Below, in pieces: positions 1,841-51,785 of a stretch of DNA of 64,000 nucleotides. The notes under the pieces are model-generated. The model saw only the letters and a list, made by a program, of their open reading frames with translations, made no database searches and was not told the origin of the DNA. The DNA is from Kiritimatiellia bacterium (GTDB taxonomy: Bacteria > Verrucomicrobiota > Kiritimatiellia > JAKQHR01). The stretch lies in NCBI GenBank assembly GCA_050178035.1, contig JBFXGK010000001.1, positions 128,679-192,678 of the forward strand, read 5' to 3'. A program made the position numbers and the translations under genes. Position 1 is the first letter of the stretch; every line of letters begins with the position of its first letter.

Positions 1841-3262
1841 TCAGCCGAGATTCTTCTTGAGGATTTCGATGACAACGGCCGGATTGGCCTTGCCCCTGCT
1901 GAGTTTCATGACCTGTCCCACGAGATGCTGCAGGGCGGCTTCCTTGCCCGCTTTGTAGGCGGTCACGGATTTTTCATTTTCGGCAATCGCCTGTTTCGCC
2001 ATTGCCTCCAGCGCGCCGGTGTCGCTGACCTGCGCCAGCCCGCGCGCCTTCACAATCGCAGCCGGATCGCCGCCCTCTTCCAGCATCACGGCGAATACTT
2101 CCTTTGCGCCGGTGCTGCTGACGGTTTTGGAATCGACCAGCTTGATCAGCGCCGCCAGAGCAACGGGAACGATCTTGAGGTTCCTGATTTCAATCTCCTG
2201 CGCCGAAAGCACGCGCATGACTTCGCTCATGACCCAGTTGGAAGCCGCTTTGCCGTTGCCGGAGAGTTTTGCGGCCTCCTCAAAATAGTCGGCCACATTT
2301 TTGTCGGCCGCCAGCACGCCCGCGTCATATTCGGGAATGCCGTACTGCGCCATCATCCGCTCGCGCCGCTTCGCGGGCAGTTCAGGAAGCTGACAGCGCC
2401 ACTGCTCAACGATTTTCTCGTCCAGCACCACGGGCATGAGGTCGGGTTCCGGGAAATAGCGGTAGTCGTGCGCGTATTCCTTCGAGCGCATGGCCAGCGT
2501 GACGCCGGCCACATCATCCCAGCGACGCGTTTCCTGCAAAATGGTCCCGCCCTTTTCCAGAACGGAAATCTGCCGGGCGATCTCGGCTTTGAGTGCGCGG
2601 TGCACGCCCTTGAACGTGTTCATGTTCTTCAGTTCGGTTTTGACGCCCAGCTTCTCCTGCCCCTCGGGGCGGACGCTGCAGTTCACGTCGCAGCGCATGT
2701 TGCCCTCTTCGAGATTGCAGTCGCTGATGCCGCCGTAGACCAGAATCTGCTTGAGCGCCTGCAGATAGGCAAAAGCCTCGTCGGCCGACTCGATCACCGG
2801 CTCCGTTACAATCTCCATCAGCGGCGTGCCCGCGCGGTTGAAATCCACGCCGCTGTAATTTTCGAAATGGATGTTCTTCGCGACATCCTCTTCAAGGTGA
2901 ATGCGCGTGACATCAATCGAACGCTTGCCGGCTTCCGTTACGATATCAACCGACCCACCGAGGCACAGCGGCTGATCGTACTGTGAAATCTGGTAGTTTT
3001 TGGGCATGTCGGGATAGAAATAGCTCTTGCGGTCAAACTTGCTGTACGTGTTGATCTTGCATCCGATCATCAGCCCGGTCATTACCGTGAGGCGGACGGC
3101 CTCCTCGTTCAGCACCGGCATTGCGCCCGGATAGCCGAGGCATACCGGACAGACATGCGTGTTGGGCTCGTCGCCGAAATCCTTCCGGCATCCGCAGAAA
3201 ATCTTGCTCTGCGTCTTGAGCTGAACATGCGTTTCCAGACCTATGGTGACTTTGTAGTTCAT
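1841..3262 (-). CDS. gatB: aspartyl/glutamyl-tRNA(Asn/Gln) amidotransferase subunit B
   Basis: 473 aa; N-terminus MNYKVTIGLETHVQLKTQSKIFCGC typical of GatB; full-length. Confidence 0.95.
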   Translation of the reverse strand: MNYKVTIGLETHVQLKTQSKIFCGCRKDFGDEPNTHVCPVCLGYPGAMPVLNEEAVRLTVMTGLMIGCKINTYSKFDRKSYFYPDMPKNYQISQYDQPLCLGGSVDIVTEAGKRSIDVTRIHLEEDVAKNIHFENYSGVDFNRAGTPLMEIVTEPVIESADEAFAYLQALKQILVYGGISDCNLEEGNMRCDVNCSVRPEGQEKLGVKTELKNMNTFKGVHRALKAEIARQISVLEKGGTILQETRRWDDVAGVTLAMRSKEYAHDYRYFPEPDLMPVVLDEKIVEQWRCQLPELPAKRRERMMAQYGIPEYDAGVLAADKNVADYFEEAAKLSGNGKAASNWVMSEVMRVLSAQEIEIRNLKIVPVALAALIKLVDSKTVSSTGAKEVFAVMLEEGGDPAAIVKARGLAQVSDTGALEAMAKQAIAENEKSVTAYKAGKEAALQHLVGQVMKLSRGKANPAVVIEILKKNLG

Positions 3263-4228: not shown

Positions 4229-5022
4229 TACCCGTGTGATTCGGTCGGGAACCGGCCCTGCTCGACTTCGTCCTTGTAGCTGGTCAGGGCGCGGGTGATT
4301 TCGGTGCCGAGTTCGGCGTAGCGTTTCACGAAGCGCGGCTGATTCCCATGATAGAGGCCAAGCAAATCGTGCCAGACCAGCACCTGACCATCACACCCGG
4401 GGCCTGCACCGATTCCAATGGTTGGAATATTTATCGAGGCGGTAATTTCTGCCGCCAGTTTCTGCGGAATGCATTCAAGCACCAGCGAAAAAGCTCCGGC
4501 CTCGGCCAGGTCTTTCGCGTCCTGTTTGAGCTGCTCCGCATCTTGTTCTGTTTTGGCCTGAACCCTGAACCCTCCAAAAACATTTACGCTCTGCGGGGTC
4601 AAACCAAGATGGGCCTGCACCGGGATCCCGTTGGCCACCATTCGTTGAACCAGTTCAACGCGCACGGCCCCGCCCTCGACCTTGACGGCATCAGCCCCGG
4701 CTTCTTTTAAAAACCGCCCGGCATTGATCAATGCTTCGTCTTCGGAGCCCTGATAGGAAAGAAAAGGCATGTCCGCCACCACCATGGCCTGTTTCACGGC
4801 TCGCGAAACCGCGCGGGTGTGGTGAAGCATTTCTTCCATGGTGACGGGAAGCGTTGTGTCGTATCCAAGAACAGTCATGCCCAGCGAGTCTCCCACAAGC
4901 ACCAGCGGGATGCCCGCCTCGTCCGCGATCCGGGCGGATGAAAAATCATAGGCCGTGATGCAGGCAATTTTCCGCTGACCCTTCTGGGCCTTGATCGTGA
5001 GCACTGTCCACTGTTTTTTCAT
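4225..5022 (-). CDS. panB: 3-methyl-2-oxobutanoate hydroxymethyltransferase
   Basis: ORF 4225..5073; [24 protein letters not shown] motifs. Start set to ATG at 5022 (MKKQWTVL), just after folK stop. Confidence 0.9.
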
Positions 5023-5531: not shown

Positions 5532-6038
5532 CTATTTCCCCGCTTTCTTCCCAAGCGCGTAATGCAGCAGGATCTCATCCGTTTTGTAGAGCCGCCTGCA
5601 GGCCTCGCGCGCGATGTTTAAAATCACCATGCCGAATATATCCTTGTCCGTTTTGTAAAGCGAATGGATCGCCTCGCGCGAAAGAATGATCAGTTCCGTG
5701 TCCTCCATCGCCACGGCGGTGGCCGAGTGCGGCTGAATGCCTATCACCGAGGTCTCGCCGAAGCACTGCCCCGTGCCGAATTCAATCAGTTCCATGGTTG
5801 TGCCGTCCACGTCCACCACCATCTTCACACGCCCCGACTGCACAATATAAATGTGGCTGGGCCTGCCGCCCTGCTCAAAAATCATCGTCCCTTCTTTATG
5901 GTGCATCGAACCCAGCAGCGGAAATATCCGATGCAGTTGCTCATCGGTCAGCCCGCCCAGCAGAGAAATCTGGTTGAGGATCGCCATGACGCGGCTCACA
6001 TCCAGCGGGAACTGCCTCTCCTGCTCGGAAAAGCTCAT
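5532..6038 (-). CDS. stand-alone cyclic-nucleotide-binding domain protein (no HTH)
   Basis: C-terminal 168 aa of ORF 5532..6401 from MSFSEQERQ; cNMP-binding fold signature (IYIVQSGRVKM...GQCFGETS...ATAVAMEDTELI). The upstream 121 aa of the ORF overlap dapB in another frame and are rejected. ATG at 6038, 1 nt after dapB stop. Confidence 0.7.
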   Translation of the reverse strand: MSFSEQERQFPLDVSRVMAILNQISLLGGLTDEQLHRIFPLLGSMHHKEGTMIFEQGGRPSHIYIVQSGRVKMVVDVDGTTMELIEFGTGQCFGETSVIGIQPHSATAVAMEDTELIILSREAIHSLYKTDKDIFGMVILNIAREACRRLYKTDEILLHYALGKKAGK

Positions 6039-6039
6039 C

Positions 6040-6843
6040 TTAGAGGCCCAGCACGTCCTGCATGGTATAAAGCCCAGGCTTTCGGCCCGCGACCCACGCA
6101 GCCGCGCGCAGTGCGCCCAAAGCAAAGGTCTCGCGGCTTGTCGCACGATGCGAAAGCTCAAGGCACTCGCCTTCGGCCGCAAACAGCACCGTGTGGTCGC
6201 CGATGATGTCTCCGCCGCGGACAGCGTGTATTCCGATCTGCTCACCCGGACGCTCGCCCACGAGGCCGGAACGCCCGTGAACGGCCACGCGGTTGAGGTC
6301 CCAGCCCAGCCCGTCCGCCGCCGACTTTGCCAGCGTGACCGCCGATCCGCTCGGGGCATCTTTCTTGCGGCGGTGATGCCGCTCGATGATTTCCACATCA
6401 TAGCCCTTGCCTGACAGCGCCTTCGACGCCTGTTTAACCAGGGAGAAGAGCAGATTCATTCCAAGGCTCATGTTGGCCGAAAAAACCACCGGCACCTTTT
6501 TAGCCGCCTCGTGGACCATGCCCTCCTCATCCGCCGACATGCCGGTGGTGCCCACCACCAGTGCAACTCCAGTCTGCGCAGAAATTCTTGCATGCTCGGC
6601 CGTGTTCGTATGGAAACTGAAGTCAATCATCACATCAGAAGCCCTGGCCGCAGCGGCCACGTCCGTCGTGAAAAAAACGCCCAGCTTGCCGGCCGCGCCG
6701 GCATCACTGCCAAGCGCTGTGAAATCGGGCCGCTCGACCGCGGCAGATATAGCGAGATCCTGCACAACCCCTGTTTGCACTGCACGGATCATGGCTTGAC
6801 CCATGCGTCCGCCGGCCCCAATAATCGCGACTTTTTTTGTCAT
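6040..6843 (-). CDS. dapB: 4-hydroxy-tetrahydrodipicolinate reductase
   Basis: 267 aa; N-terminal Rossmann VAIIGAGGRMG, ERHHRRKKDAPSG motif. Confidence 0.9.
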   Translation of the reverse strand: MTKKVAIIGAGGRMGQAMIRAVQTGVVQDLAISAAVERPDFTALGSDAGAAGKLGVFFTTDVAAAARASDVMIDFSFHTNTAEHARISAQTGVALVVGTTGMSADEEGMVHEAAKKVPVVFSANMSLGMNLLFSLVKQASKALSGKGYDVEIIERHHRRKKDAPSGSAVTLAKSAADGLGWDLNRVAVHGRSGLVGERPGEQIGIHAVRGGDIIGDHTVLFAAEGECLELSHRATSRETFALGALRAAAWVAGRKPGLYTMQDVLGL

Positions 6844-7752: not shown

Positions 7753-7829
7753 TTCCAATGATTGGAAGTTTCTTTCTGAAAAGTTCCAACCATTGGAAAA
7801 TCTAAACACGATTCCTCCAATGATTGGAA
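7753..7829. promoter_or_regulatory. array of three 7-1-7 palindromes TTCCAAT-N-ATTGGAA, 31-bp centre spacing, 30-106 bp upstream of dapA start
   Basis: Read directly: TTCCAATGATTGGAA 7753-7767, TTCCAACCATTGGAA 7784-7798, cTCCAATGATTGGAA 7815-7829. Confidence 0.5.
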
Positions 7830-7919
7830 GTTTTTACGCATTATTTTCCAGCGGCTGGAACTTAAAGTCAGCCTCCGGCCGACACCCGGAACGCTGGTGT
7901 CCTTCCGCAGAAAATCCGC

Positions 7920-7974
7920 GAAAATGCAAAATTTCGCAAAAAATTGGCATTTTTGACCGTTTTTTGCCATTTTT
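7920..7974. repeat. phased A/T-tract array, left part (interrupted by IS insertion)
   Basis: gaaaatgcaaaatttcgcaaaaaattggcatttttgaccgttttttgccattttt; T/A runs recur every ~10-11 bp. Confidence 0.5.
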
Positions 7975-9290
7975 GCACATCTGTCCCAGTATTACCGCCA
8001 CAGCATCAACTGGTTAGAAGAGGGAGGTGTTTCTGGGGAGGCGTCTGCCTGCTGAAAAGCCTGTAAAATGGGCACTTTTTCAAATAGCGAGACACTCAAG
8101 ACCTGTAGAATAATGTAGAGTGAAGCTTCTATTTTCAGCCGCTTCTTTATGATGGCGACCAGCAGATATACTGTGATCGCAATCCAGATTTGAGATTTAA
8201 CCGCATTGGGCGAGGTTCCGTAGAATGACTTGATCCGCAGATTCTGCTTGATCCATTTAAAAAATATTTCGATGTTCCAGCGGCCCTTGAAAAGTTCTGC
8301 AACCGTGAGGGGAGGAAGTGAAAAATTATTGGTAAGGAAAACCAGCGTCCGGTTTTCCTGATCACGATACTTGATGCGCCGGAGATGTTCCGGAAAGTAT
8401 CGGGCTGTCTGTGTACCCGTGAGAATGATGGTCTGATCGCAAAGGATGCCGCAGTCTCTATCGGATGGATGGGAGTAGATACGTTGGAACTGAAGATTGG
8501 ATCGGGCCCGTGTAACAAAATAGGCTTTAAGCGAGTGTAGCAGATAAAGGCGTTTGAAATCCAAATAGGCGCGGTCCATTACATAGTAGGCTCCGGGAAC
8601 CGGCAGGATGTGATCCAATACACTGGCATCACCTCGTTTGCCATCTGTAATCAGTATATATTCCGGGATATTGCCGGATAAGTTGAGAAGGGTATGCATC
8701 TTCACGGCCCCTTTGGTCCGGCAGAAATGAGCCCAAGGAAACATCGAAAGACACAGGTCGATCACCGTTGAGTCCAATGCGTATACATCGGCACCCAAAT
8801 CCGGCATCAGCGGATCATCCGCGTATAATCGTCTGGCCTCAGGAATCAGGACGTGAGCAAAATCAGCGTAGATGCGCCAGTCCCGGGTTTCGTTCGCAAC
8901 AGAAAGATTGTTGCGCGAGACGCGACTGTGAATCCCCAAGTGGTACAGCTTGCCGCTCACAGCCCGCAAACAGGATTCGATGTCCCGCAAACTTTCACGG
9001 CAAGTCAACTGAGCAAAGGCCATCACACGGAACTGCTCAGAGCACCGGAACGTCTTCACCTTGTAATCGCCCTGATAGCGATTCACCAACGTCTGAAATC
9101 GCCACCAGGGCAACTGCTGCATCAGCTGAGAAAATACGGTTGTTCCAGAATACATAAGGTTGATCTCCTCCTCCTGATCAACCTTATAGGAAAAACCAAT
9201 TTCAAGTCGGAAAGGATGTAATATCAACACATCCTTATGATGTAACGTGCGTTATAACTATTTTATGCGAAAACGTTGGGACAGATGTGC
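7975..9290 (-). mobile_element. IS element, IS4-family-like, ~1.3 kb, with terminal inverted repeats and flanking direct repeat
   Basis: Perfect 14-bp inverted repeats gcacatctgtccca (7975-7988) and tgggacagatgtgc (9277-9290); flanking direct repeat cattttt at 7968-7974 and 9291-9297 (7-9 bp depending on exact IR end); one DDE transposase ORF inside. Confidence 0.8.
7992..9155 (-). CDS. DDE transposase (IS4 family-like)
   Basis: ORF 7992..9230; start set to ATG at 9155 (MYSGTTVFSQLMQQLP...). Candidate DDE residues in YALDSTVIDL, YVMDRAYLDF, WNIEIFFKWIKQNLRIK. Confidence 0.85.
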   Translation of the reverse strand: MYSGTTVFSQLMQQLPWWRFQTLVNRYQGDYKVKTFRCSEQFRVMAFAQLTCRESLRDIESCLRAVSGKLYHLGIHSRVSRNNLSVANETRDWRIYADFAHVLIPEARRLYADDPLMPDLGADVYALDSTVIDLCLSMFPWAHFCRTKGAVKMHTLLNLSGNIPEYILITDGKRGDASVLDHILPVPGAYYVMDRAYLDFKRLYLLHSLKAYFVTRARSNLQFQRIYSHPSDRDCGILCDQTIILTGTQTARYFPEHLRRIKYRDQENRTLVFLTNNFSLPPLTVAELFKGRWNIEIFFKWIKQNLRIKSFYGTSPNAVKSQIWIAITVYLLVAIIKKRLKIEASLYIILQVLSVSLFEKVPILQAFQQADASPETPPSSNQLMLWR

Positions 9291-9350
9291 CATTTTTGGG
9301 CTTTTTGGGGGCATTTTTGACCATTTTTTGCACTTTTTCGTGGTTTTCAG
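9291..9350. repeat. phased T-tract array, right part (continuation across the IS)
   Basis: catttttgggctttttgggggcatttttgaccattttttgcactttttcgtggttttcag. Confidence 0.5.
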
Positions 9351-9371: not shown

Positions 9372-10739
<1,368 letters not shown>

Positions 10740-20250: not shown

Positions 20251-21900
20251 TCACTTCCCGGCCATCATGGCCGCGACATCGGCCTGCACTTCGCCAGTCG
20301 GTTTGATGTCGAAGTTCTCAACCAGCACTTTGGCGACAGCGGGCGAAAGGAACGCCGGAAGCGTCGGCCCCAGGCGGATGCCTTTCACCCCCAGATGCAG
20401 CAGCGCCAGCAGCACCGCAACGGCCTTCTGCTCGTACCAGGCGATGTCGAACGAAAGCGGAAGGTCATTGATGGAGGCCAGACCGAACGCCTCCTTCAGC
20501 TTCAGGGCGATGACCGCCAGCGAGTAGCTGTCGTTGCACTGCCCAGCATCCAGCACGCGCGGAATGCCGCCGATGTCGCCGAGGTTCAGCTTGTTGTAAC
20601 GGTACTTCGCGCAGCCCGCGGTCAGGATGATCGTGTCCTTTGGCAGAGCCTCGGCTACTTCTGTGAAGTAGCTGCGGTTTTTGTGACGACCATCGCATCC
20701 GGCCATCACCACAAAGCGCTTGATCGCACCGGACTTGACAGCCTCCACCACCTTGCCGGCCACGGCCATGACCTGATTGTGTGCGAAACCACCGACGATT
20801 TCGCCGTTTTCAATCTCCTGCGGCGGCGGACACTTCTTCGCCTGCTCGATGATCGCGGAGAAATCCTTCTGCTTGCCCGGTTTGCGGTCGGGGATGTGCT
20901 TTGCGCCCGGCCAGCCGGCCATGCCCGTGGTGTAAAAACGGTTGAGATAAGAATCCTTCACCGGAATGATGCAGTTGGTCGTCAGCAGGATCGGCCCGTT
21001 GAACGAGGCGAATTCCTTGTCCTGAAGCCACCAGCTCCCGCCGTAGTTGCCGGCCAGGTGCTTGTATTTCTTGAAGGCCGGATAGTAATGGCACGGAAGC
21101 ATTTCTCCGTGGGTATAGACATCCACCCCCGTGCCCTCTGTCTGCTGCAGCAGTTCGTCCATGTCCTTCAGGTCGTGGCCCGAAATCAGAATGCCCGGAT
21201 TTTTGCGGACGCCGGTGGCAACTTTTGTGATTTCCGGATTGCCATAGGTCTCGGTATTGGCTTTGTCGAGCAGCGCCATGGTCGTTACGGCAATTTCGCC
21301 CGCCTTCAGGACCATGCCCACCATTTGATCAACACTGAGTTTCTGAGTGGTCGAGATCAGACCATCAACCACAAACCGGTAGATGGCGTCATCCTCATAG
21401 CCGAGAACAAGCGCGTGATCAGCGTAGGCCGCGATGCCCTTCAGGCCAATGATCAGAAGCTGCTGGAGCGACCGCACGTCCTCGTTCGGCTCGGACGGGA
21501 TGCCGACCAGAAGCGCCTTGACCTGCAGATCCTCGCCCTTCTTCGGAGCCCATGTCGCCGCGTCGGGCAGACTTTTCGCCCAGGCGGCGTCCTTCTTCTC
21601 GCACTGCTTGCGAATGGCGTCGCGCTGCGCAACAGCCTCATGGATCAGGCGGCTGATGACTGCATCGTCAAAGTTGGCATTGGTGATTGTGGAAAAAAGA
21701 CCGCGGATAATGGTCTGTCCGACTGCGCGGTCATACAGGCCCAGTTCATCGGCTTTCTTGCCGGCAATGGCCAGTCCTTTCAGAGAATGGATCAGAAGAT
21801 CCATCAGATTTGCCGTGGGCTCCTGTTTTCCGCAAACGCCCCGGACGGTGCATCCCTGATTCTTCGCGGTCTCCTGACACTGGAAGCAGAACATACTCAT
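20251..21900 (-). CDS. hcp: hybrid cluster protein / hydroxylamine reductase
   Basis: 549 aa; N-terminal [11 protein letters not shown]...CTVRGVCGK Cys cluster and full-length Hcp architecture. Confidence 0.95.
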
Positions 21901-22370
21901 GATTTTCCCTTTCCTTTTTTTGGTTGTTTATAAATTTCAGCCAGCGTTGTTTTCTCAAAGAAAGCGTTCAGGCGGTTTTGAAGAATGCAGACGGACCCCT
22001 TCATCGGGCATTTCCCGCTGTAGGGACAGGGCTGCCCCTTGCGGTTGCAGACATTCATATAGACCGGCCCCTGCACGGCCTCGACAATCCGTGCGAGGCT
22101 GATCTTCCGGGTCGGAAGGGCCAGCAGATATCCCCCGCGCTTTCCGCGCACGGTTTTCACGACTCCGGCTTTTGCGAGCGTCTGCATGATCTTGCGGAGG
22201 GCGGGCAGCGGCACTTTGCAGTCCTTCGCCAGTTCAAGCGTGTCGGTGCGGGTGCACCGCCGGTCCAGCACATGCAGTGCCCGGAGCGCGTAATCGGTCT
22301 CTCTTCTGAGTATTTCCATAAGCCATCCTTTAAATGCGACCAATTTAGTCCTATTTAACTCCCGCGTCAA
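21897..22370 (-). CDS. Rrf2-family transcriptional regulator (NsrR/IscR-like)
   Basis: 157 aa; [10 protein letters not shown]...GGYLLALP wHTH signature; C-terminal Cys residues; 4-nt overlap with hcp start. Confidence 0.85.
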
Positions 22371-22389
22371 CTAATTATATGAAATTATT

Positions 22390-22761
22390 TCAGGAAGTCT
22401 TTTTCGGCCAGGCCTTGAGGACGGCCATCACCTCTCGGACCCAGGTGCAAACGCACTTGACGGGACATCGGCCGTCCTGACCCAGATGGGAGCAGTAACC
22501 CGGACAGTCCGGTCCCCGGTAGGCACACGTCTGCCACACAGGTCCGTCGTAAAGGTTCCGGAAGTCTTCCACCGCCAGGGCAAGCGTGGTCGTGCATTCG
22601 GTCACATGGTTGAAAAGGAAATATCCCAACCGTTCCTCTTCAAAAAAAGGCTGATAGCCAAGAAATTCGACCGATGGATCTGACAGGAATGAATCCCGGT
22701 CCTTCCATGCCGTGCCGCAGGTCGTGCAGCGCTTGTAGATATGTACGCTCTCTTCTTTCAC
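22390..22761 (-). CDS. cysteine-rich hypothetical protein
   Basis: 123 aa; CTTCG, CAYRGPDCPGYCSH, CPVKCVC motifs; first gene of the hcp operon; no family recognised. Confidence 0.45.
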   Translation of the reverse strand: MKEESVHIYKRCTTCGTAWKDRDSFLSDPSVEFLGYQPFFEEERLGYFLFNHVTECTTTLALAVEDFRNLYDGPVWQTCAYRGPDCPGYCSHLGQDGRCPVKCVCTWVREVMAVLKAWPKKTS

Positions 22762-22854
22762 ATTCCCTCTTGCTCATGACAGTTTATTCGACGATCCCCG
22801 ACAAAGCAAGGGGGTGCTTCAACAATATCCGCGGCCTGCCGCCGGTTCAAAAAG

Positions 22855-22931
22855 TTCCAATCATTGGAAGTATTTCCGGGAAAAGTTCCAACCATTGGAA
22901 GTTTTGTGAAGAAAAGTTCCAATGATTGGAA
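22855..22931. promoter_or_regulatory. array of three 7-1-7 palindromes TTCCAAT-N-ATTGGAA, 31-bp centre spacing, upstream of the Cys-rich/rrf2/hcp operon
   Basis: TTCCAATCATTGGAA 22855-22869, TTCCAACCATTGGAA 22886-22900, TTCCAATGATTGGAA 22917-22931. Confidence 0.55.
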
Positions 22932-22961
22932 AAACCGCACCCTGTCTTTCGCGTGCTGCGT

Positions 22962-24107
22962 TCAGAAGCTGATGTTGCCGCCGCCATCCGTGGCGGTTCC
23001 TGCGATGTTTGTGCTCAAAACGCTGAAGCGGTTGTCAGCATACACGTTGCCGGCTGCTGAAAATACGATGCCGGTGTCAGATCCGGTGATCAGGTTGTTC
23101 TCAATGCAGTTGCGCGCGTTGTTCACATGAATGCCGTTGATCCAATTCCACGACACATTGTTGCCTGCGACATGGCAGGAAAGACTCGCGGAAAGCCCCC
23201 CGCAATCCGGGTCTCTCAGGGAGTTGTTGTTTCCAATGGTGTTGTTGTGCACCGAGCACCCGGTAGAGGCATAAATTCCCCATTCCGCATTGTGCATGCA
23301 AACGTTTTCCCCGATACGGTTGTAATCACCTCCAGAAATTCCATTTTTTGCGTTTTCAGACGCCACATTGCCCTGAATCAAACTCGAATCCCCTGCAACA
23401 ATGCCGGAACTCCCGTTTCCGCATGATGCGTTTCCGGAAACAACGCACCCCTCACCGGCATAGATGCCCCAGTATCCGTTCCCGTACACAATGCACTCTT
23501 CAACCTGCCCGCAGTTCCCTATCTCGATCCCGATTGAGCTGTTGGAAACAACTGTCACACCGTCCAGGATGCAGCCCTCAGTAGGAAAATAGATCCCGAT
23601 GCCTCCGTTGTTTATGATGCGCAGACCAGTCACCCGGTGAGCCCGAGGTTGAGATGAAAGCATAGACTCATAGGCATAAACACCGTTTGCCCCGAACTGG
23701 GCAACCGTTCCGTTGCGTACTTCCACGTTGCGCACGTTTCCGATGTAAATGCCATAGTGTGACACATCCAGCGGATTTCCCGTCAGCGTGAATCCGTTCA
23801 GATCAAGGGCAACATGATCGGCTGAAACAGAGATCCCTCCTTGTGTCACTGTCATGTTGTCTGTCAAATAATAGGATCCGCTGTTGGTGATTGCATAATG
23901 ATAGCCTGAAGAACCCGGCGTGTTGATTGCGCTCAGCGCGGTCCGCGGCTCGGACAGCAGGGTTTGCTGGTGAATTTGATACAGAGTCTTCATTGACGGG
24001 GCGGGCGCGCCCGCCGGCATCAGCAGGCCCTGGGCCAATATGCACTGGGCCCACAGAAGTGCCGACGCAAAAATCATCAGATGTTTCAAGCCAGCCTTCA
24101 TAAGCAT
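22962..24107 (-). CDS. secreted right-handed parallel beta-helix repeat protein
   Basis: ORF 22962..24299; start set to ATG at 24107 (MLMKAGLKHLMIFASALLWAQC signal peptide); Gly/Asn-rich repeats typical of beta-helix (pectate-lyase-like) folds. The N-terminal extension in the track is translation of the T-tract array. Confidence 0.7.
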   Translation of the reverse strand: MLMKAGLKHLMIFASALLWAQCILAQGLLMPAGAPAPSMKTLYQIHQQTLLSEPRTALSAINTPGSSGYHYAITNSGSYYLTDNMTVTQGGISVSADHVALDLNGFTLTGNPLDVSHYGIYIGNVRNVEVRNGTVAQFGANGVYAYESMLSSQPRAHRVTGLRIINNGGIGIYFPTEGCILDGVTVVSNSSIGIEIGNCGQVEECIVYGNGYWGIYAGEGCVVSGNASCGNGSSGIVAGDSSLIQGNVASENAKNGISGGDYNRIGENVCMHNAEWGIYASTGCSVHNNTIGNNNSLRDPDCGGLSASLSCHVAGNNVSWNWINGIHVNNARNCIENNLITGSDTGIVFSAAGNVYADNRFSVLSTNIAGTATDGGGNISF

Positions 24108-24224
24108 CCTCCCTCTTCGGCCTTTGCAGGCTTTTGTTGGAAGAAATGCTATCAAATATTCCGCAGGAAACAATCGAAGAAACGAACCGGTTTGCGCGCT
24201 TCTCGATCTTTTGCGGCGAATTAT

Positions 24225-24315
24225 GAAAAAATTGACGAAATTCGGCCAATTTTGAGCATTTTTAGCCGTTTTTGGCGTGTTTTCGCTAATTTTGGCCATT
24301 TCGATGCTTTTTCAG
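24225..24315. repeat. phased A/T-tract array
   Basis: gaaaaaattgacgaaattcggccaattttgagcatttttagccgtttttggcgtgttttcgctaattttggccatttcgatgctttttcag; T runs every ~10 bp. Confidence 0.5.
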
Positions 24316-24330
24316 GCCCTGCGAAGAACA

Positions 24331-24540
24331 TCATTTGTTACAGCAGGAACCGGCGGATTTCAGACCCATTTTTTTGAAGATCATCTCCGCGGGGCAGAAA
24401 CCCGTAAAGGCGGACTGGATCAAATTGACGCCCACAAAGCAGGCCAGCAACAGCCACCATTGATTCACAAAATGCGCCAGCGCCACACTCACCAGCACAA
24501 GCGTTCCCGCTAGAATACGAATTGCATTTTCAACTGTCAT
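24331..24540 (-). CDS. DUF2892-like small inner-membrane protein (YgaP-like TM domain)
   Basis: 69 aa; two hydrophobic helices and C-terminal FTGFCP motif. Confidence 0.5.
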   Translation of the reverse strand: MTVENAIRILAGTLVLVSVALAHFVNQWWLLLACFVGVNLIQSAFTGFCPAEMIFKKMGLKSAGSCCNK

Positions 24541-37707: not shown

Positions 37708-37800
37708 GCGGTTTTAACCTGTTTTTGGCCATTTTTGAGCATTATTAGCCGTTTTTTGGCCTTTTTGAGCACTTTTTGGGCATTTTTAAGAGAATTTTCA
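37708..37800. repeat. phased T-tract array (best example)
   Basis: gcggttttaacctgtttttggccatttttgagcattattagccgttttttggcctttttgagcactttttgggcatttttaagagaattttca; T runs start at about 37712, 37722, 37732, 37752, 37762, 37773, 37784, 37795. Confidence 0.55.
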
Positions 37801-44747: not shown

Positions 44748-44793
44748 TTCCAATCATTGGAAGTATTATAACGAATAGTTCCAGGGATTGGAA
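44748..44793. promoter_or_regulatory. two 7-1-7 palindromes, 31-bp centre spacing, 63-108 bp upstream of iorA
   Basis: TTCCAATCATTGGAA 44748-44762; TTCCAGGGATTGGAA 44779-44793 (degenerate left half). Confidence 0.5.
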
Positions 44794-44855: not shown

Positions 44856-46631
44856 TTGCGGCAGGATATGAAACCGACAAAAACACTGATGCTGGGAAAT
44901 GAAGCGATTGCGCGCGGCGCCTGGGAAGCCGGCGTGCGCGTGGCCACGGCCTATCCCGGCACTCCCAGCACCGAAGTCACCGAACACATCGCGCAGTACA
45001 AGGAAATAGATTCCGAGTGGTCGGTGAATGAAAAAGTCGCACTGGAAGTAGCGATTGGCGCTTCCGTGGCCGGCGCGCGCGCAGTCTGCACGATGAAGCA
45101 CGTTGGCCTCAATGTGGCCATGGATCCCCTGCTCTCGATTTCTTATCCCGGCGTCAATGCGGGGCTGGTGGTCGTGGTGGCGGACGACCCCGGACAGCAC
45201 AGTTCCCAGAACGAGCAGGACACCCGCTATTTCGGCATGGCCGGAAAGCTGCCGGTGCTCGAACCGTCCGACAGCCGCGAGTGCCGCGATTTCATGATCC
45301 GCGCGTTTGAAATCAGCGAGAAATTTGACACCCCTGTGATCGTTCGCACAACCACGCGCGTGGCCCACGCCTATGGTCTCGTGGATCATGGCGAGCGCGC
45401 TGACGTTCCGCTGCGCGAGTACGACAGCCGATTCGGGAAATACATGGTCGCGCCCGCATTCTCGCGCAAGCGCCGCGTGGTGGCCGAGGAGCGTCTTGGG
45501 AAACTGCGCGGGTTCGCGGAAACCACCGACTTGAATGTTTATGAGGAAGGCCGGTCTGATACCTGCATCGTCACCGGGAGCATTGCTTATCAGTACTGCA
45601 AGGAAGTCATGCCCGAGGCCGGTTTCTGCAAACTGGGGCTTTCGTATCCCCTGCCCGAAAAGAAGCTGAAAGATTTCTGCAGACGGTACCAGCAGGTTTT
45701 CGTTGTTGAGGAACTGGAACCCATTTTCGAAAACCACCTGAAGACGCTCGGAATCCCAGTGATTGGAAAAGATAAAGTTCCAATCATTGGAGAATTGAGC
45801 ACGGAGATCGTCCGAAAGGCGCTGACCGGGATTGCTCCGAAGCCGGCAGCATCCCAATTTGAAAACCTTCCTGTTCGTCCTCCGGTGCTCTGCCCCGGAT
45901 GCCATCACCGCGGACCGTTCTATGTGATGAAGAAACTCAAGCTGAAAGTGGCCGGCGACATCGGATGCTACACGCTGACCGCCTCGCCGCCGCTGAGCAT
46001 CATGGACACCGCGATCTGCATGGGCGCGGGCATCGGCATGGCCTTCGGCATGCAGAAGGCGCGCGGAAAGGATTTCGCGGGAAAATCTATCGCGGTCATC
46101 GGCGACTCGACCTTCTGGCATTCCGGCATGACCGGCCTCCTGGACATTGTCTATAACCGCGGCATCACCACGGTTGTCATTTTGGACAACAGCATCACCG
46201 CGATGACCGGGCATCAGGAGAATCCATCCAGCGGCAGGACTCTCAGCGGAGAAACCGTGCCTGCGATCAGCTTTGCGGATTTTGCAAAATCCATCGGCAT
46301 CAGGCATGTGCGCGAAGTGGATGCCTTCAACCTGAAGGAACTCGAAACAGTCATGCGCGAGGAACTGGCGCGCGAGGAGCCGTCGGTGATCATCACCAAA
46401 CGCATCTGCATCCTGCACCCGTGTGCGGTCAGGCATTTCCCGCTGAAGGTGAATCCGGATCTCTGCAAGAGCTGCATGAAATGCCTTTCGATCGGATGCC
46501 CCGCCATTTCCTTCGACGGCGACAAGGTGAAGATTGATCAGGTGCTTTGCGTGGGATGCGAACTGTGCGCGGGCATATGCCCGTTCCATGCGATTGAAAA
46601 GCAGCCCAAACCCGACGGAGGCGAATCTTGA
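44856..46631 (+). CDS. iorA: indolepyruvate ferredoxin oxidoreductase subunit alpha
   Basis: 591 aa; TPP-binding and 4Fe-4S ferredoxin motifs (CKSCMKC...CPAISF, CVGCELCAGICP). Confidence 0.95.
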   Translation: MRQDMKPTKTLMLGNEAIARGAWEAGVRVATAYPGTPSTEVTEHIAQYKEIDSEWSVNEKVALEVAIGASVAGARAVCTMKHVGLNVAMDPLLSISYPGVNAGLVVVVADDPGQHSSQNEQDTRYFGMAGKLPVLEPSDSRECRDFMIRAFEISEKFDTPVIVRTTTRVAHAYGLVDHGERADVPLREYDSRFGKYMVAPAFSRKRRVVAEERLGKLRGFAETTDLNVYEEGRSDTCIVTGSIAYQYCKEVMPEAGFCKLGLSYPLPEKKLKDFCRRYQQVFVVEELEPIFENHLKTLGIPVIGKDKVPIIGELSTEIVRKALTGIAPKPAASQFENLPVRPPVLCPGCHHRGPFYVMKKLKLKVAGDIGCYTLTASPPLSIMDTAICMGAGIGMAFGMQKARGKDFAGKSIAVIGDSTFWHSGMTGLLDIVYNRGITTVVILDNSITAMTGHQENPSSGRTLSGETVPAISFADFAKSIGIRHVREVDAFNLKELETVMREELAREEPSVIITKRICILHPCAVRHFPLKVNPDLCKSCMKCLSIGCPAISFDGDKVKIDQVLCVGCELCAGICPFHAIEKQPKPDGGES

Positions 46632-51638: not shown

Positions 51639-51689
51639 ATCACTCCTCCAATGTTATGCAGCCGCTGAATGAAGATTTTAAAGAAATTT

Positions 51690-51785
51690 AGGTGTTTTTA
51701 AGCATTTTCGAGCATATTTTGGCCGTTTTTTGCCATTTTTAGGCATTTTTTAGCCCTTTTTGCTCATTTTTGAGCATTTTTTAAG
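51690..51785. repeat. phased T-tract array
   Basis: ggtgtttttaagcattttcgagcatattttggccgttttttgccatttttaggcattttttagccctttttgctcatttttgagcattttttaagccc; nine T runs at ~10-11 bp period. Confidence 0.55.

Follow-up and report, generated by a model that had tools for sequence, protein, structure and literature searches.

Phased palindromic arrays in intergenic DNA of Kiritimatiellia, possible sites for a widely acting DNA-binding protein

Background

Three near-identical palindromes stand in line before a string of redox-stress genes in a Kiritimatiellia bacterium, and the question raised by this locus is whether they form the operator of a local stress regulator, such as the Rrf2-family protein encoded beside them, or sites for a protein that acts far more widely. 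Members of the Kiritimatiellia degrade polysaccharides anaerobically and are abundant in sediments, guts, and the rumen; to our knowledge almost nothing has been established about gene control in this class. The analysis was performed on the 64,000-nt stretch of DNA that contains the locus, referred to below as the window, and on loci from other genomes that carry the same motif. Coordinates of the features are collected in Table 1.

Table 1. Locations of features in the window and, where a locus handle (L) precedes the coordinates, in loci from other genomes
Feature	Location	Strand	Remarks
Site 1, nearest the operon	22855..22869	.	TTCCAATCATTGGAA; centre 22862
Site 2	22886..22900	.	TTCCAACCATTGGAA; one mismatch; centre 22893
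Site 3, farthest from the operon	22917..22931	.	TTCCAATGATTGGAA; centre 22924
Entire triplet array with A/T-rich flanks (AAAAG...)	22850..22936	.	TRF period, position profiles, orthologue comparison
NosD-like ORF	22962-24299	-	stop borders the triplet gap
Predicted -35, TTGCTT, of operon promoter	22804..22809	-	inferred from conservation
Predicted -10, TAAACT, of operon promoter	22781..22786	-	inferred from conservation
Cys-rich 123-aa protein	22390..22761	-	GTG start; first downstream gene
Rrf2-family regulator	21897..22370	-	superfamily model match
Hcp (hydroxylamine reductase/hybrid-cluster protein)	20251..21900	-	
Sister array A, 31-bp period	7753..7860	.	four sites (7753, 7784, 7815, 7846; last degenerate)
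Sister array C	44748..44793	.	two sites (44748, 44779), 31 bp apart
IS4-family insertion sequence	7975-9290		transposase 7992-9230, DUF4372 and DDE_Tnp_1 domains
T-tract repeats	51687-51783; 37722-37787; 7904-7976; 9298-9331; L125 5840-5950		
Sites on viral contig	L117 3460-3505; L118 712-767		spacings 31 and 41 bp
Boxes before PerR-like genes	L129 about 2930-2950; L130 about 2935-2960; L131 about 2975-2995; L034 about 2525-2545		
21-bp-period repeats	L013 2789-3038; L048 1993-2315; L057 4556-4732; L083 1447-1739; L115 5884-6086		

The triplet and the downstream operon

The palindromes lie in a gap of 200 bp between the stop codon of the NosD-like ORF and the GTG of the Cys-rich ORF, 94-170 bp from that GTG, and their centres follow each other in exact 31-bp steps. 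Independently, a 31-bp repeat of 2.6 copies was reported by TRF at 22850-22931. In the window as a whole, TTCCAAT-N-ATTGGAA with up to two mismatches was matched 11 times, compared with 0.33 matches expected, and none of 100 shuffles reached 11, so that a chance origin of the excess is excluded; the looser core TTCCA-N5-TGGAA gave nine exact matches where 0.06 were expected.

On the minus strand the gene order is Cys-rich protein, Rrf2, Hcp, Fer4 protein, cupin, and flavodiiron protein, and genes for NADH oxidase, rubrerythrin, desulfoferrodoxin, ferritin, and thioredoxin are located beyond wider gaps in the string. The initial annotation of this DNA had described three palindromes with these centres, 94-170 bp upstream of the first gene of a long redox-stress string, and had placed the same motif at dapA and iorA; the sites, their spacing and distance, the gene content of the string, and the motif copies at both other genes were all found as described. 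The Cys-rich protein was without a Pfam or NCBIfam family, and a protein with 100% identity to it is encoded in a Kiritimatiellia MAG. Homologues with 40-48% identity occur in Desulfobacterales (L127, L128), where the neighbours are DNA_alkylation, META, and DDAH-like genes; these loci contain neither Rrf2 nor hcp and were rejected as a route to an Rrf2 operator. The Rrf2 protein of the operon was matched by the superfamily model only, and not by the NsrR or IscR equivalog models.

The promoter of the operon, predicted from conservation, has the geometry TTGCTT-17-TAAACT, with the -10 hexamer 19 nt before the GTG. Its -35 element (TTGCTT or TTGCAA) recurs in each of the four orthologous upstream regions, the one that has no array included, and its -10 element (TAAACT or TAGATT) is kept in the same four at an equal distance from the start codon. 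Relative to the transcription start predicted in this way, the sites are centred at about -88, -119, and -150. Sigma-54 enhancer sites were also considered and were rejected, as inspection of the sequence between triplet and gene found no GG-N10-GC promoter.

Further motif copies and other repeats in the window

Of the two sister arrays, A approaches dapA, its nearest site ending 29 bp before the ATG, and C begins 3 bp past the stop codon of a thiS-like gene and ends 21 nt before a predicted iorA promoter (TTGCAT-16-TAAAGT). The IS4-family element near array A has perfect 14-bp terminal inverted repeats (GCACATCTGTCCCA) and splits a T-tract repeat between the array and the enolase gene (9453-10739). 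Because the element interrupts this region, array A was originally in a divergent dapA/eno control region. The possibility that the arrays are insertion sequence ends was rejected, since this element has 14-bp repeats of its own and excludes the array.

Three further matches are inside genes: panB has one (4413) and iorA two (45754, 45778). The panB site (4413-4427) is single and near-perfect (TTCCAATGGTTGGAA), extends to 17 bp, and has no in-phase partner. The motif-like pair inside iorA (45754-45792), with its members 24 bp apart, is kept in a relative with 92% identity in this gene (L126 1486-1524); the pair encodes the repeated peptide VP(V/I)IG(K/E) and may be a by-product of codon choice rather than binding sites.

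A second type of intergenic repeat in the window consists of T-tract decamers, TTTTTGRSCA, in 3-8 copies with a period of 10-11 bp, as expected of intrinsically curved DNA. Some of the units read TGGCC-N..-GAGCA, which is the GG-N10-GC spacing of sigma-54 promoters. In L125 such repeats are located upstream of the Cys-rich gene, at the position where other species carry the palindrome array, and according to TRF they are almost absent from the other Kiritimatiellia loci. Following dapB is an ORF (5532-6401) that encodes a cyclic-nucleotide-binding domain and in which no DNA-binding domain was recognised; the 5' part of the listed ORF overlaps dapB, and the real gene is probably about 165 aa long.

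Taxonomic distribution

One genome per species, from 185,579 species, was scanned for two sites separated by any gap of 5-30 bp (20-45 bp spacing), and at least 116 loci from at least 44 assemblies were obtained. Among the matches listed, 41 of the 44 assemblies carry PVC names; 18 are named Kiritimatiellia, Kiritimatiellales, Pontiellaceae, or Tichowtungia, and 23 stand under the older PVC labels Verrucomicrobia, Lentisphaerae, and Spartobacteria. The arrays are found across the class Kiritimatiellia; on the matches listed, exclusivity to the class is not claimed. A tandem pair of sites is present in the genome of a cultured isolate, Pontiellaceae B1224 (L098).

The sole non-PVC label among the matches listed is Prevotellaceae (L019 3288-3373, 44% G+C), and this match is something else, namely 3.9 tandem copies of a 22-bp unit, GTTGTTCCAAGCATTGGAACAA. 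In the viral collection only one contig, IMGVR_UViG_3300035698_006241, had the tandem motif, in two places; it may represent a prophage of Kiritimatiellia or a piece of host DNA that was assigned wrongly.

Anatomy of the arrays

The listed loci contain 486 sites in arrays of 2-7. Spacing between neighbours peaks at 31-32 bp (216 pairs), with smaller peaks at 22 bp (25 pairs) and 42 bp (7 pairs); the prevailing distance of 31-32 bp and the less frequent ones of 21-22 or 42 bp correspond to three, two, and four helical turns, respectively. In AM-2014_bin-1020, the most array-rich MAG, 87 of 97 pairs are spaced at 32 bp. The same MAG also contains several long tandem repeats in which 8-15 units follow each other every 21 bp; their consensus units differ.

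In the position profiles the effective site is a longer palindrome that measures about 23 bp and reads a(a/t)TT-TTCCAAT-S-ATTGGAA-AA(a/t)t. Among the listed sites, variation is rare at the six outermost positions of either half of the core; G or C occupies the centre in about 99% of them, with mostly T and A beside it, and the core as a whole hardly changes across the 44 listed assemblies, which belong to a deep clade. Within each spacer, the central 8-9 bp are unconstrained and track only the base composition of the genome. Spacers of the same array agree at 3.3 of 8 positions, compared with 2.2 of 8 for random pairs, which suggests growth of arrays by local tandem duplication.

Conservation at orthologous loci

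The same operon was found in related species with 72-80% identity in the Cys-rich protein. A triplet lies 88 bp before the operon start in L120-123 and a doublet is present at the operon in L124. In L125, the closest relative examined, the operon, Rrf2, and the promoter are kept and the array is absent. At iorA, the array numbers four sites in L126 and two in the window; both arrays keep an equal distance of 21 nt to the conserved TTGCAT-16-TAAAGT promoter, although the gene upstream differs. In comparisons of the orthologous hcp and iorA arrays, the sites are 90-93% identical; the four flanking bases on each side in the spacers are 75-100% identical and the spacer cores only 25-50%. Because the sites are so much better kept than the spacer cores, the palindromes are under purifying selection, with copy number drifting. 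Retention of the array at the operon in L120-123 and L124 makes an influence on this promoter plausible.

Genomic placement and neighbouring genes

Genes around the arrays were predicted with a crude codon-usage caller. In bin-1020 an array was present in 0.32 of tandem, 0.36 of divergent, and 0.36 of convergent gaps, and in the other genomes in 0.15, 0.14, and 0.13, respectively, absolute fractions that are inflated by the choice of loci for holding an array. Several of the arrays in convergent gaps have well-supported genes on both sides. Many arrays start a few bases past a stop codon, and some span the entire gap from stop to start, including gaps that appear operon-like; in L006 the holA stop is followed by 2 nt, three sites, 7 nt, and the yggS ATG. 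The centre base is divided 50:50 with respect to the direction of transcription, leaving no strand polarity, and no preferred offset from sigma-70-like promoters was found, so that a fixed coupling to such promoters was rejected. The arrays are confined to intergenic DNA regardless of gene orientation. They occur about every 6 kb in bin-1020, every 20 kb in the window, and every 68 kb in the remaining genomes, a density that by extrapolation implies dozens to hundreds of arrays per genome.

Among 675 predicted proteins near arrays in 45 genomes (the 44 listed assemblies and the window), almost no neighbour family recurs. Pfam searches with 20 array neighbours gave unrelated functions, among them purM, mreC, thrC, rbfA, an Hpt protein, and carbamate kinase, and holA and yggS are further examples of adjacent genes. 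A conserved regulon was rejected on the grounds of these barely shared families and unrelated functions.

The distribution of neighbours bears directly on the suggestion, made in the initial annotation, that the adjacent Rrf2 protein or a Fur-family protein binds the sites and that they control the stress genes. A local operator bound by the adjacent Rrf2 or by a Fur/PerR-family regulator, and defining a redox-stress regulon, would suit an array that precedes an operon encoding Rrf2 and is kept there in two related species (L120-123, L124); the 7-1-7 shape with its AAT-N-ATT core resembles Fur, PerR, and Zur boxes, and in L034 a triplet precedes genes for a PerR-like protein and a peroxiredoxin. 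This reading is nevertheless judged very improbable. Arrays flank genes as unrelated as purM, mreC, holA, yggS, thrC, rbfA, and that of the Hpt protein, and occupy convergent gaps as well. An Rrf2 operator would be expected at promoters of its own regulon and together with its regulator, yet none of the ten genes checked beside the largest arrays elsewhere encodes Rrf2, and L125 combines operon, Rrf2, and promoter with no array. The CC-to-GG distance in the arrays is 8 bp, shorter than the one we take to be typical of IscR-type Rrf2 sites. With no gene family recurring near the arrays, a stress regulon is not supported, and the suspicion of a broader regulator, also voiced in the initial annotation, was right to an extent far beyond its terms, the arrays occurring across Kiritimatiellia beside unrelated genes, convergent ones included.

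For the Fur family, the shape of the site fits but the one such gene found beside an array does not. The PerR-like gene of L034 is the one Fur-family neighbour among approximately 340 array-adjacent genes, a number attributable to chance (about 0.3 by our estimate). Autoregulation would place an array before such genes in general; this was seen in L034 only, as the orthologous loci L129, L130, and L131 have no arrays and carry a different box of the TAGTAAT-N-ATTACTA type, for which reason the PerR-like protein was rejected as the binder. In Kiritimatiellia a 7-1-7 box of the Fur-family form (TAGTAAT-N-ATTACTA in L131) lies just upstream of PerR-like genes that are followed by 1-Cys peroxiredoxin or ferritin-like genes, and this box is probably their own operator.

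Hairpins in RNA as an alternative

Since many arrays lie a few bases past a stop codon or between convergent genes, the palindromes might act in transcripts, as hairpins with a role in termination or in the protection or processing of mRNA ends. Some arrays are necessarily transcribed, as at dapA, where the nearest site ends 29 nt before the ATG, and the 200-nt intergenic transcript of the triplet locus folds at -67 kcal/mol with z = -3.0 relative to shuffles. A role of this kind is considered improbable in view of the sites themselves. By estimate from the sequence, a single site gives a 6-bp stem that is rich in A/U (2 G-C pairs of 6), with a 3-nt loop and no U-tract. The stem positions are invariant and show no compensatory changes, so that the sequence and not the structure is conserved. 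Shuffled pairs show as much complementarity as do the flanks of neighbouring sites, and in most genomes the next site repeats the centre base (121 pairs versus 24), which places a mismatch in any long stem between sites; long REPIN-like hairpins between paired sites were rejected on the same two counts, centre bases not being preferentially complementary. Spacing in multiples of 10.5 bp has no rationale in RNA, and the centre base shows no bias with the direction of transcription. A canonical G+C-rich terminator stands beside the array of L091, the terminator scan found no intrinsic terminator in the triplet array, and a search of 21800-24400 against Rfam gave no match at E <= 1. These observations and the spacing by whole turns of the helix favour a symmetric dimer that recognises double-stranded DNA.

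Proliferating extragenic repeats as an alternative

A further explanation is that the arrays are a proliferating repeat of the REP/BIME kind, spread by a RAYT-type transposase or by local duplication, with incidental effects on genes through supercoiling or mRNA ends. It is rated unlikely. In its favour, the arrays are extragenic, palindromic, clustered, independent of orientation, and present even in operon-like gaps, their density varies more than 10-fold between genomes, and their copy number varies between close relatives; the excess likeness of spacers in the same array likewise suggests tandem duplication. A REP family is usually restricted to one species or genus and is marked by a terminal tetranucleotide, GTAG or CGTC, that is recognised by the RAYT transposase. 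The array core, in contrast, is nearly invariant throughout the 44 listed assemblies of a deep clade, and inspection of the flanks revealed neither tag but A/T-rich sequence (aaaT...Attt). Spacing by helical turns with unrelated spacers is unlike the fixed linker motifs of BIMEs. Orthologous sites remain intact while their spacers are randomised, which points to selection rather than decay after insertion, and no transposase family recurred near the arrays among the 675 neighbouring proteins.

Discussion

The reading preferred here, to which about an even chance of being correct is assigned, is that the arrays are phased sites for a conserved, widely acting, dimeric DNA-binding protein that oligomerises, and not a private switch for stress genes. 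Each palindrome of about 23 bp would dock one dimer of an abundant, sequence-specific protein encoded elsewhere in the genome. Neighbouring dimers would share one face of the helix, touch, and bind cooperatively, and their oligomers would bend or wrap the DNA in the manner of Lrp/AsnC-type regulators on phased 15-bp boxes. At the triplet locus, three dimers, positioned about -88, -119, and -150 relative to the predicted promoter, could shape its activity architecturally. As the protein would occupy many other intergenic regions, it would be a global or nucleoid-type factor rather than a stress-specific one. The motif with its enrichment, phasing, taxonomic spread, intergenic placement, and selection on sites but not on spacers is observed; binding, oligomerisation, and the effect on transcription are what we infer.

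Several findings weigh on this reading. An ordinary promoter-bound regulator would be hard to reconcile with arrays that are as frequent in convergent gaps as elsewhere and that fill whole gaps from stop to start. The variation in density of more than 10-fold and the differences in copy number between close relatives, such as two versus four sites at iorA and presence or absence at hcp, are typical of proliferating repeats and count against the main reading, as do the lack of a fixed offset to sigma-70-like promoters and the T-S-A centre of the box. Among genes near arrays, a search for Fur, PerR, IHF, HU, ArgR, and Fis gave the one PerR-like gene of L034 and one HU gene about 450 bp away. No homologue of Lrp or AsnC was detected by tblastn with the E. 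coli proteins in 0.83 Mb of loci and the window, a weak test because the genomes were sampled in part.

In a more speculative and rather unlikely extension, the arrays would belong to a 'gene-boundary' chromatin system of Kiritimatiellia, in which one protein forms short wrapped oligomers at promoters and convergent gene ends alike and serves as a general insulator or roadblock or as a barrier to supercoils. In yeast, general regulatory factors offer an analogue, and we know of no sequence-specific system of this kind in bacteria.

In Kiritimatiellia this motif of about 23 bp is present in a large fraction of intergenic regions, up to about one third in the array-bearing stretches of one MAG, and the strict phasing together with selection on the sites points to a major, undescribed DNA-binding factor. 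Once identified, this factor would open a first way into the global regulation or the chromosome architecture of these bacteria, a question that the tandem pair in the isolate Pontiellaceae B1224 makes accessible to experiment. When genomes are annotated, it would be a mistake to take these palindromes for operators of a regulator that happens to be encoded next to them.

Comparison with known systems

Literature searches for the motif string, for repeats in Kiritimatiellota, and for binding motifs found no published account of the motif. The arrays differ from the REP and Lrp-type systems that have been described, and no earlier description was found in these searches.

Boxes of the Fur family have the form of a 7-1-7 inverted repeat, in which an AAT-N-ATT core lies between A/T-rich flanks, and the arrays conform to this consensus in all three respects. 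Fur boxes, however, mark small metal or peroxide regulons, overlap, and are not known to be phased at 31 bp, unlike the arrays. Fur, PerR, and Zur boxes differ from each other at few positions (PMC4324032).

The likeness to the REP/BIME elements of Proteobacteria lies in short, clustered extragenic palindromes at gene ends and within operons, in variable copy number, and in the presumed binding of host proteins; the Kiritimatiellia arrays are likewise extragenic, palindromic, multi-copy, and clustered. They differ in having no terminal tag and no conserved linkers, in their helical phase, in a sequence common to the class, and in selection on orthologous sites. The NIMEs of Neisseria form intergenic arrays in which dRS3, an inverted-repeat element of about 20 bp present in hundreds of copies, is combined with variable spacers. 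The alternation of a conserved inverted repeat of about 20 bp with variable intergenic spacers is shared with the arrays. Their spacers are 50-150 bp long and form repeat families of their own, and dRS3 elements are integration targets. NIMEs are not known to show helical phasing, whereas the Kiritimatiellia arrays are helically phased.

Dimers of the Lrp type bind inverted repeats of 13-17 bp that lie two or three helical turns apart, and they wrap the DNA (PMC2995911); Ss-LrpB of Sulfolobus solfataricus binds three regularly spaced 15-bp boxes, TTGCAAAATTTGCAA (PMC1802622). The Kiritimatiellia site resembles these boxes in its 15-bp palindromic core, extended to about 23 bp, which starts with TT and ends with AA (TTGCAAAATTTGCAA in Ss-LrpB versus TTCCAATSATTGGAA). 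The regular centre-to-centre spacing by two or three turns, with peaks at 31-32, 21-22, and 42 bp, is of the same kind and implies cooperativity on one face and wrapping. The centre of the Kiritimatiellia box is T-S-A, whereas boxes of the Lrp type have an A+T-only centre for contact in the minor groove, and the arrays also occur in convergent and short gaps and at high density. The comparison may therefore tell how the arrays work, and the binder is not claimed as a member of the Lrp family, because of the non-A/T centre, the lack of an Lrp/AsnC gene in the sampled DNA, and the non-classical placement. In sum, the arrays resemble REP/BIME or NIME elements in their distribution and Lrp operators in their internal geometry.
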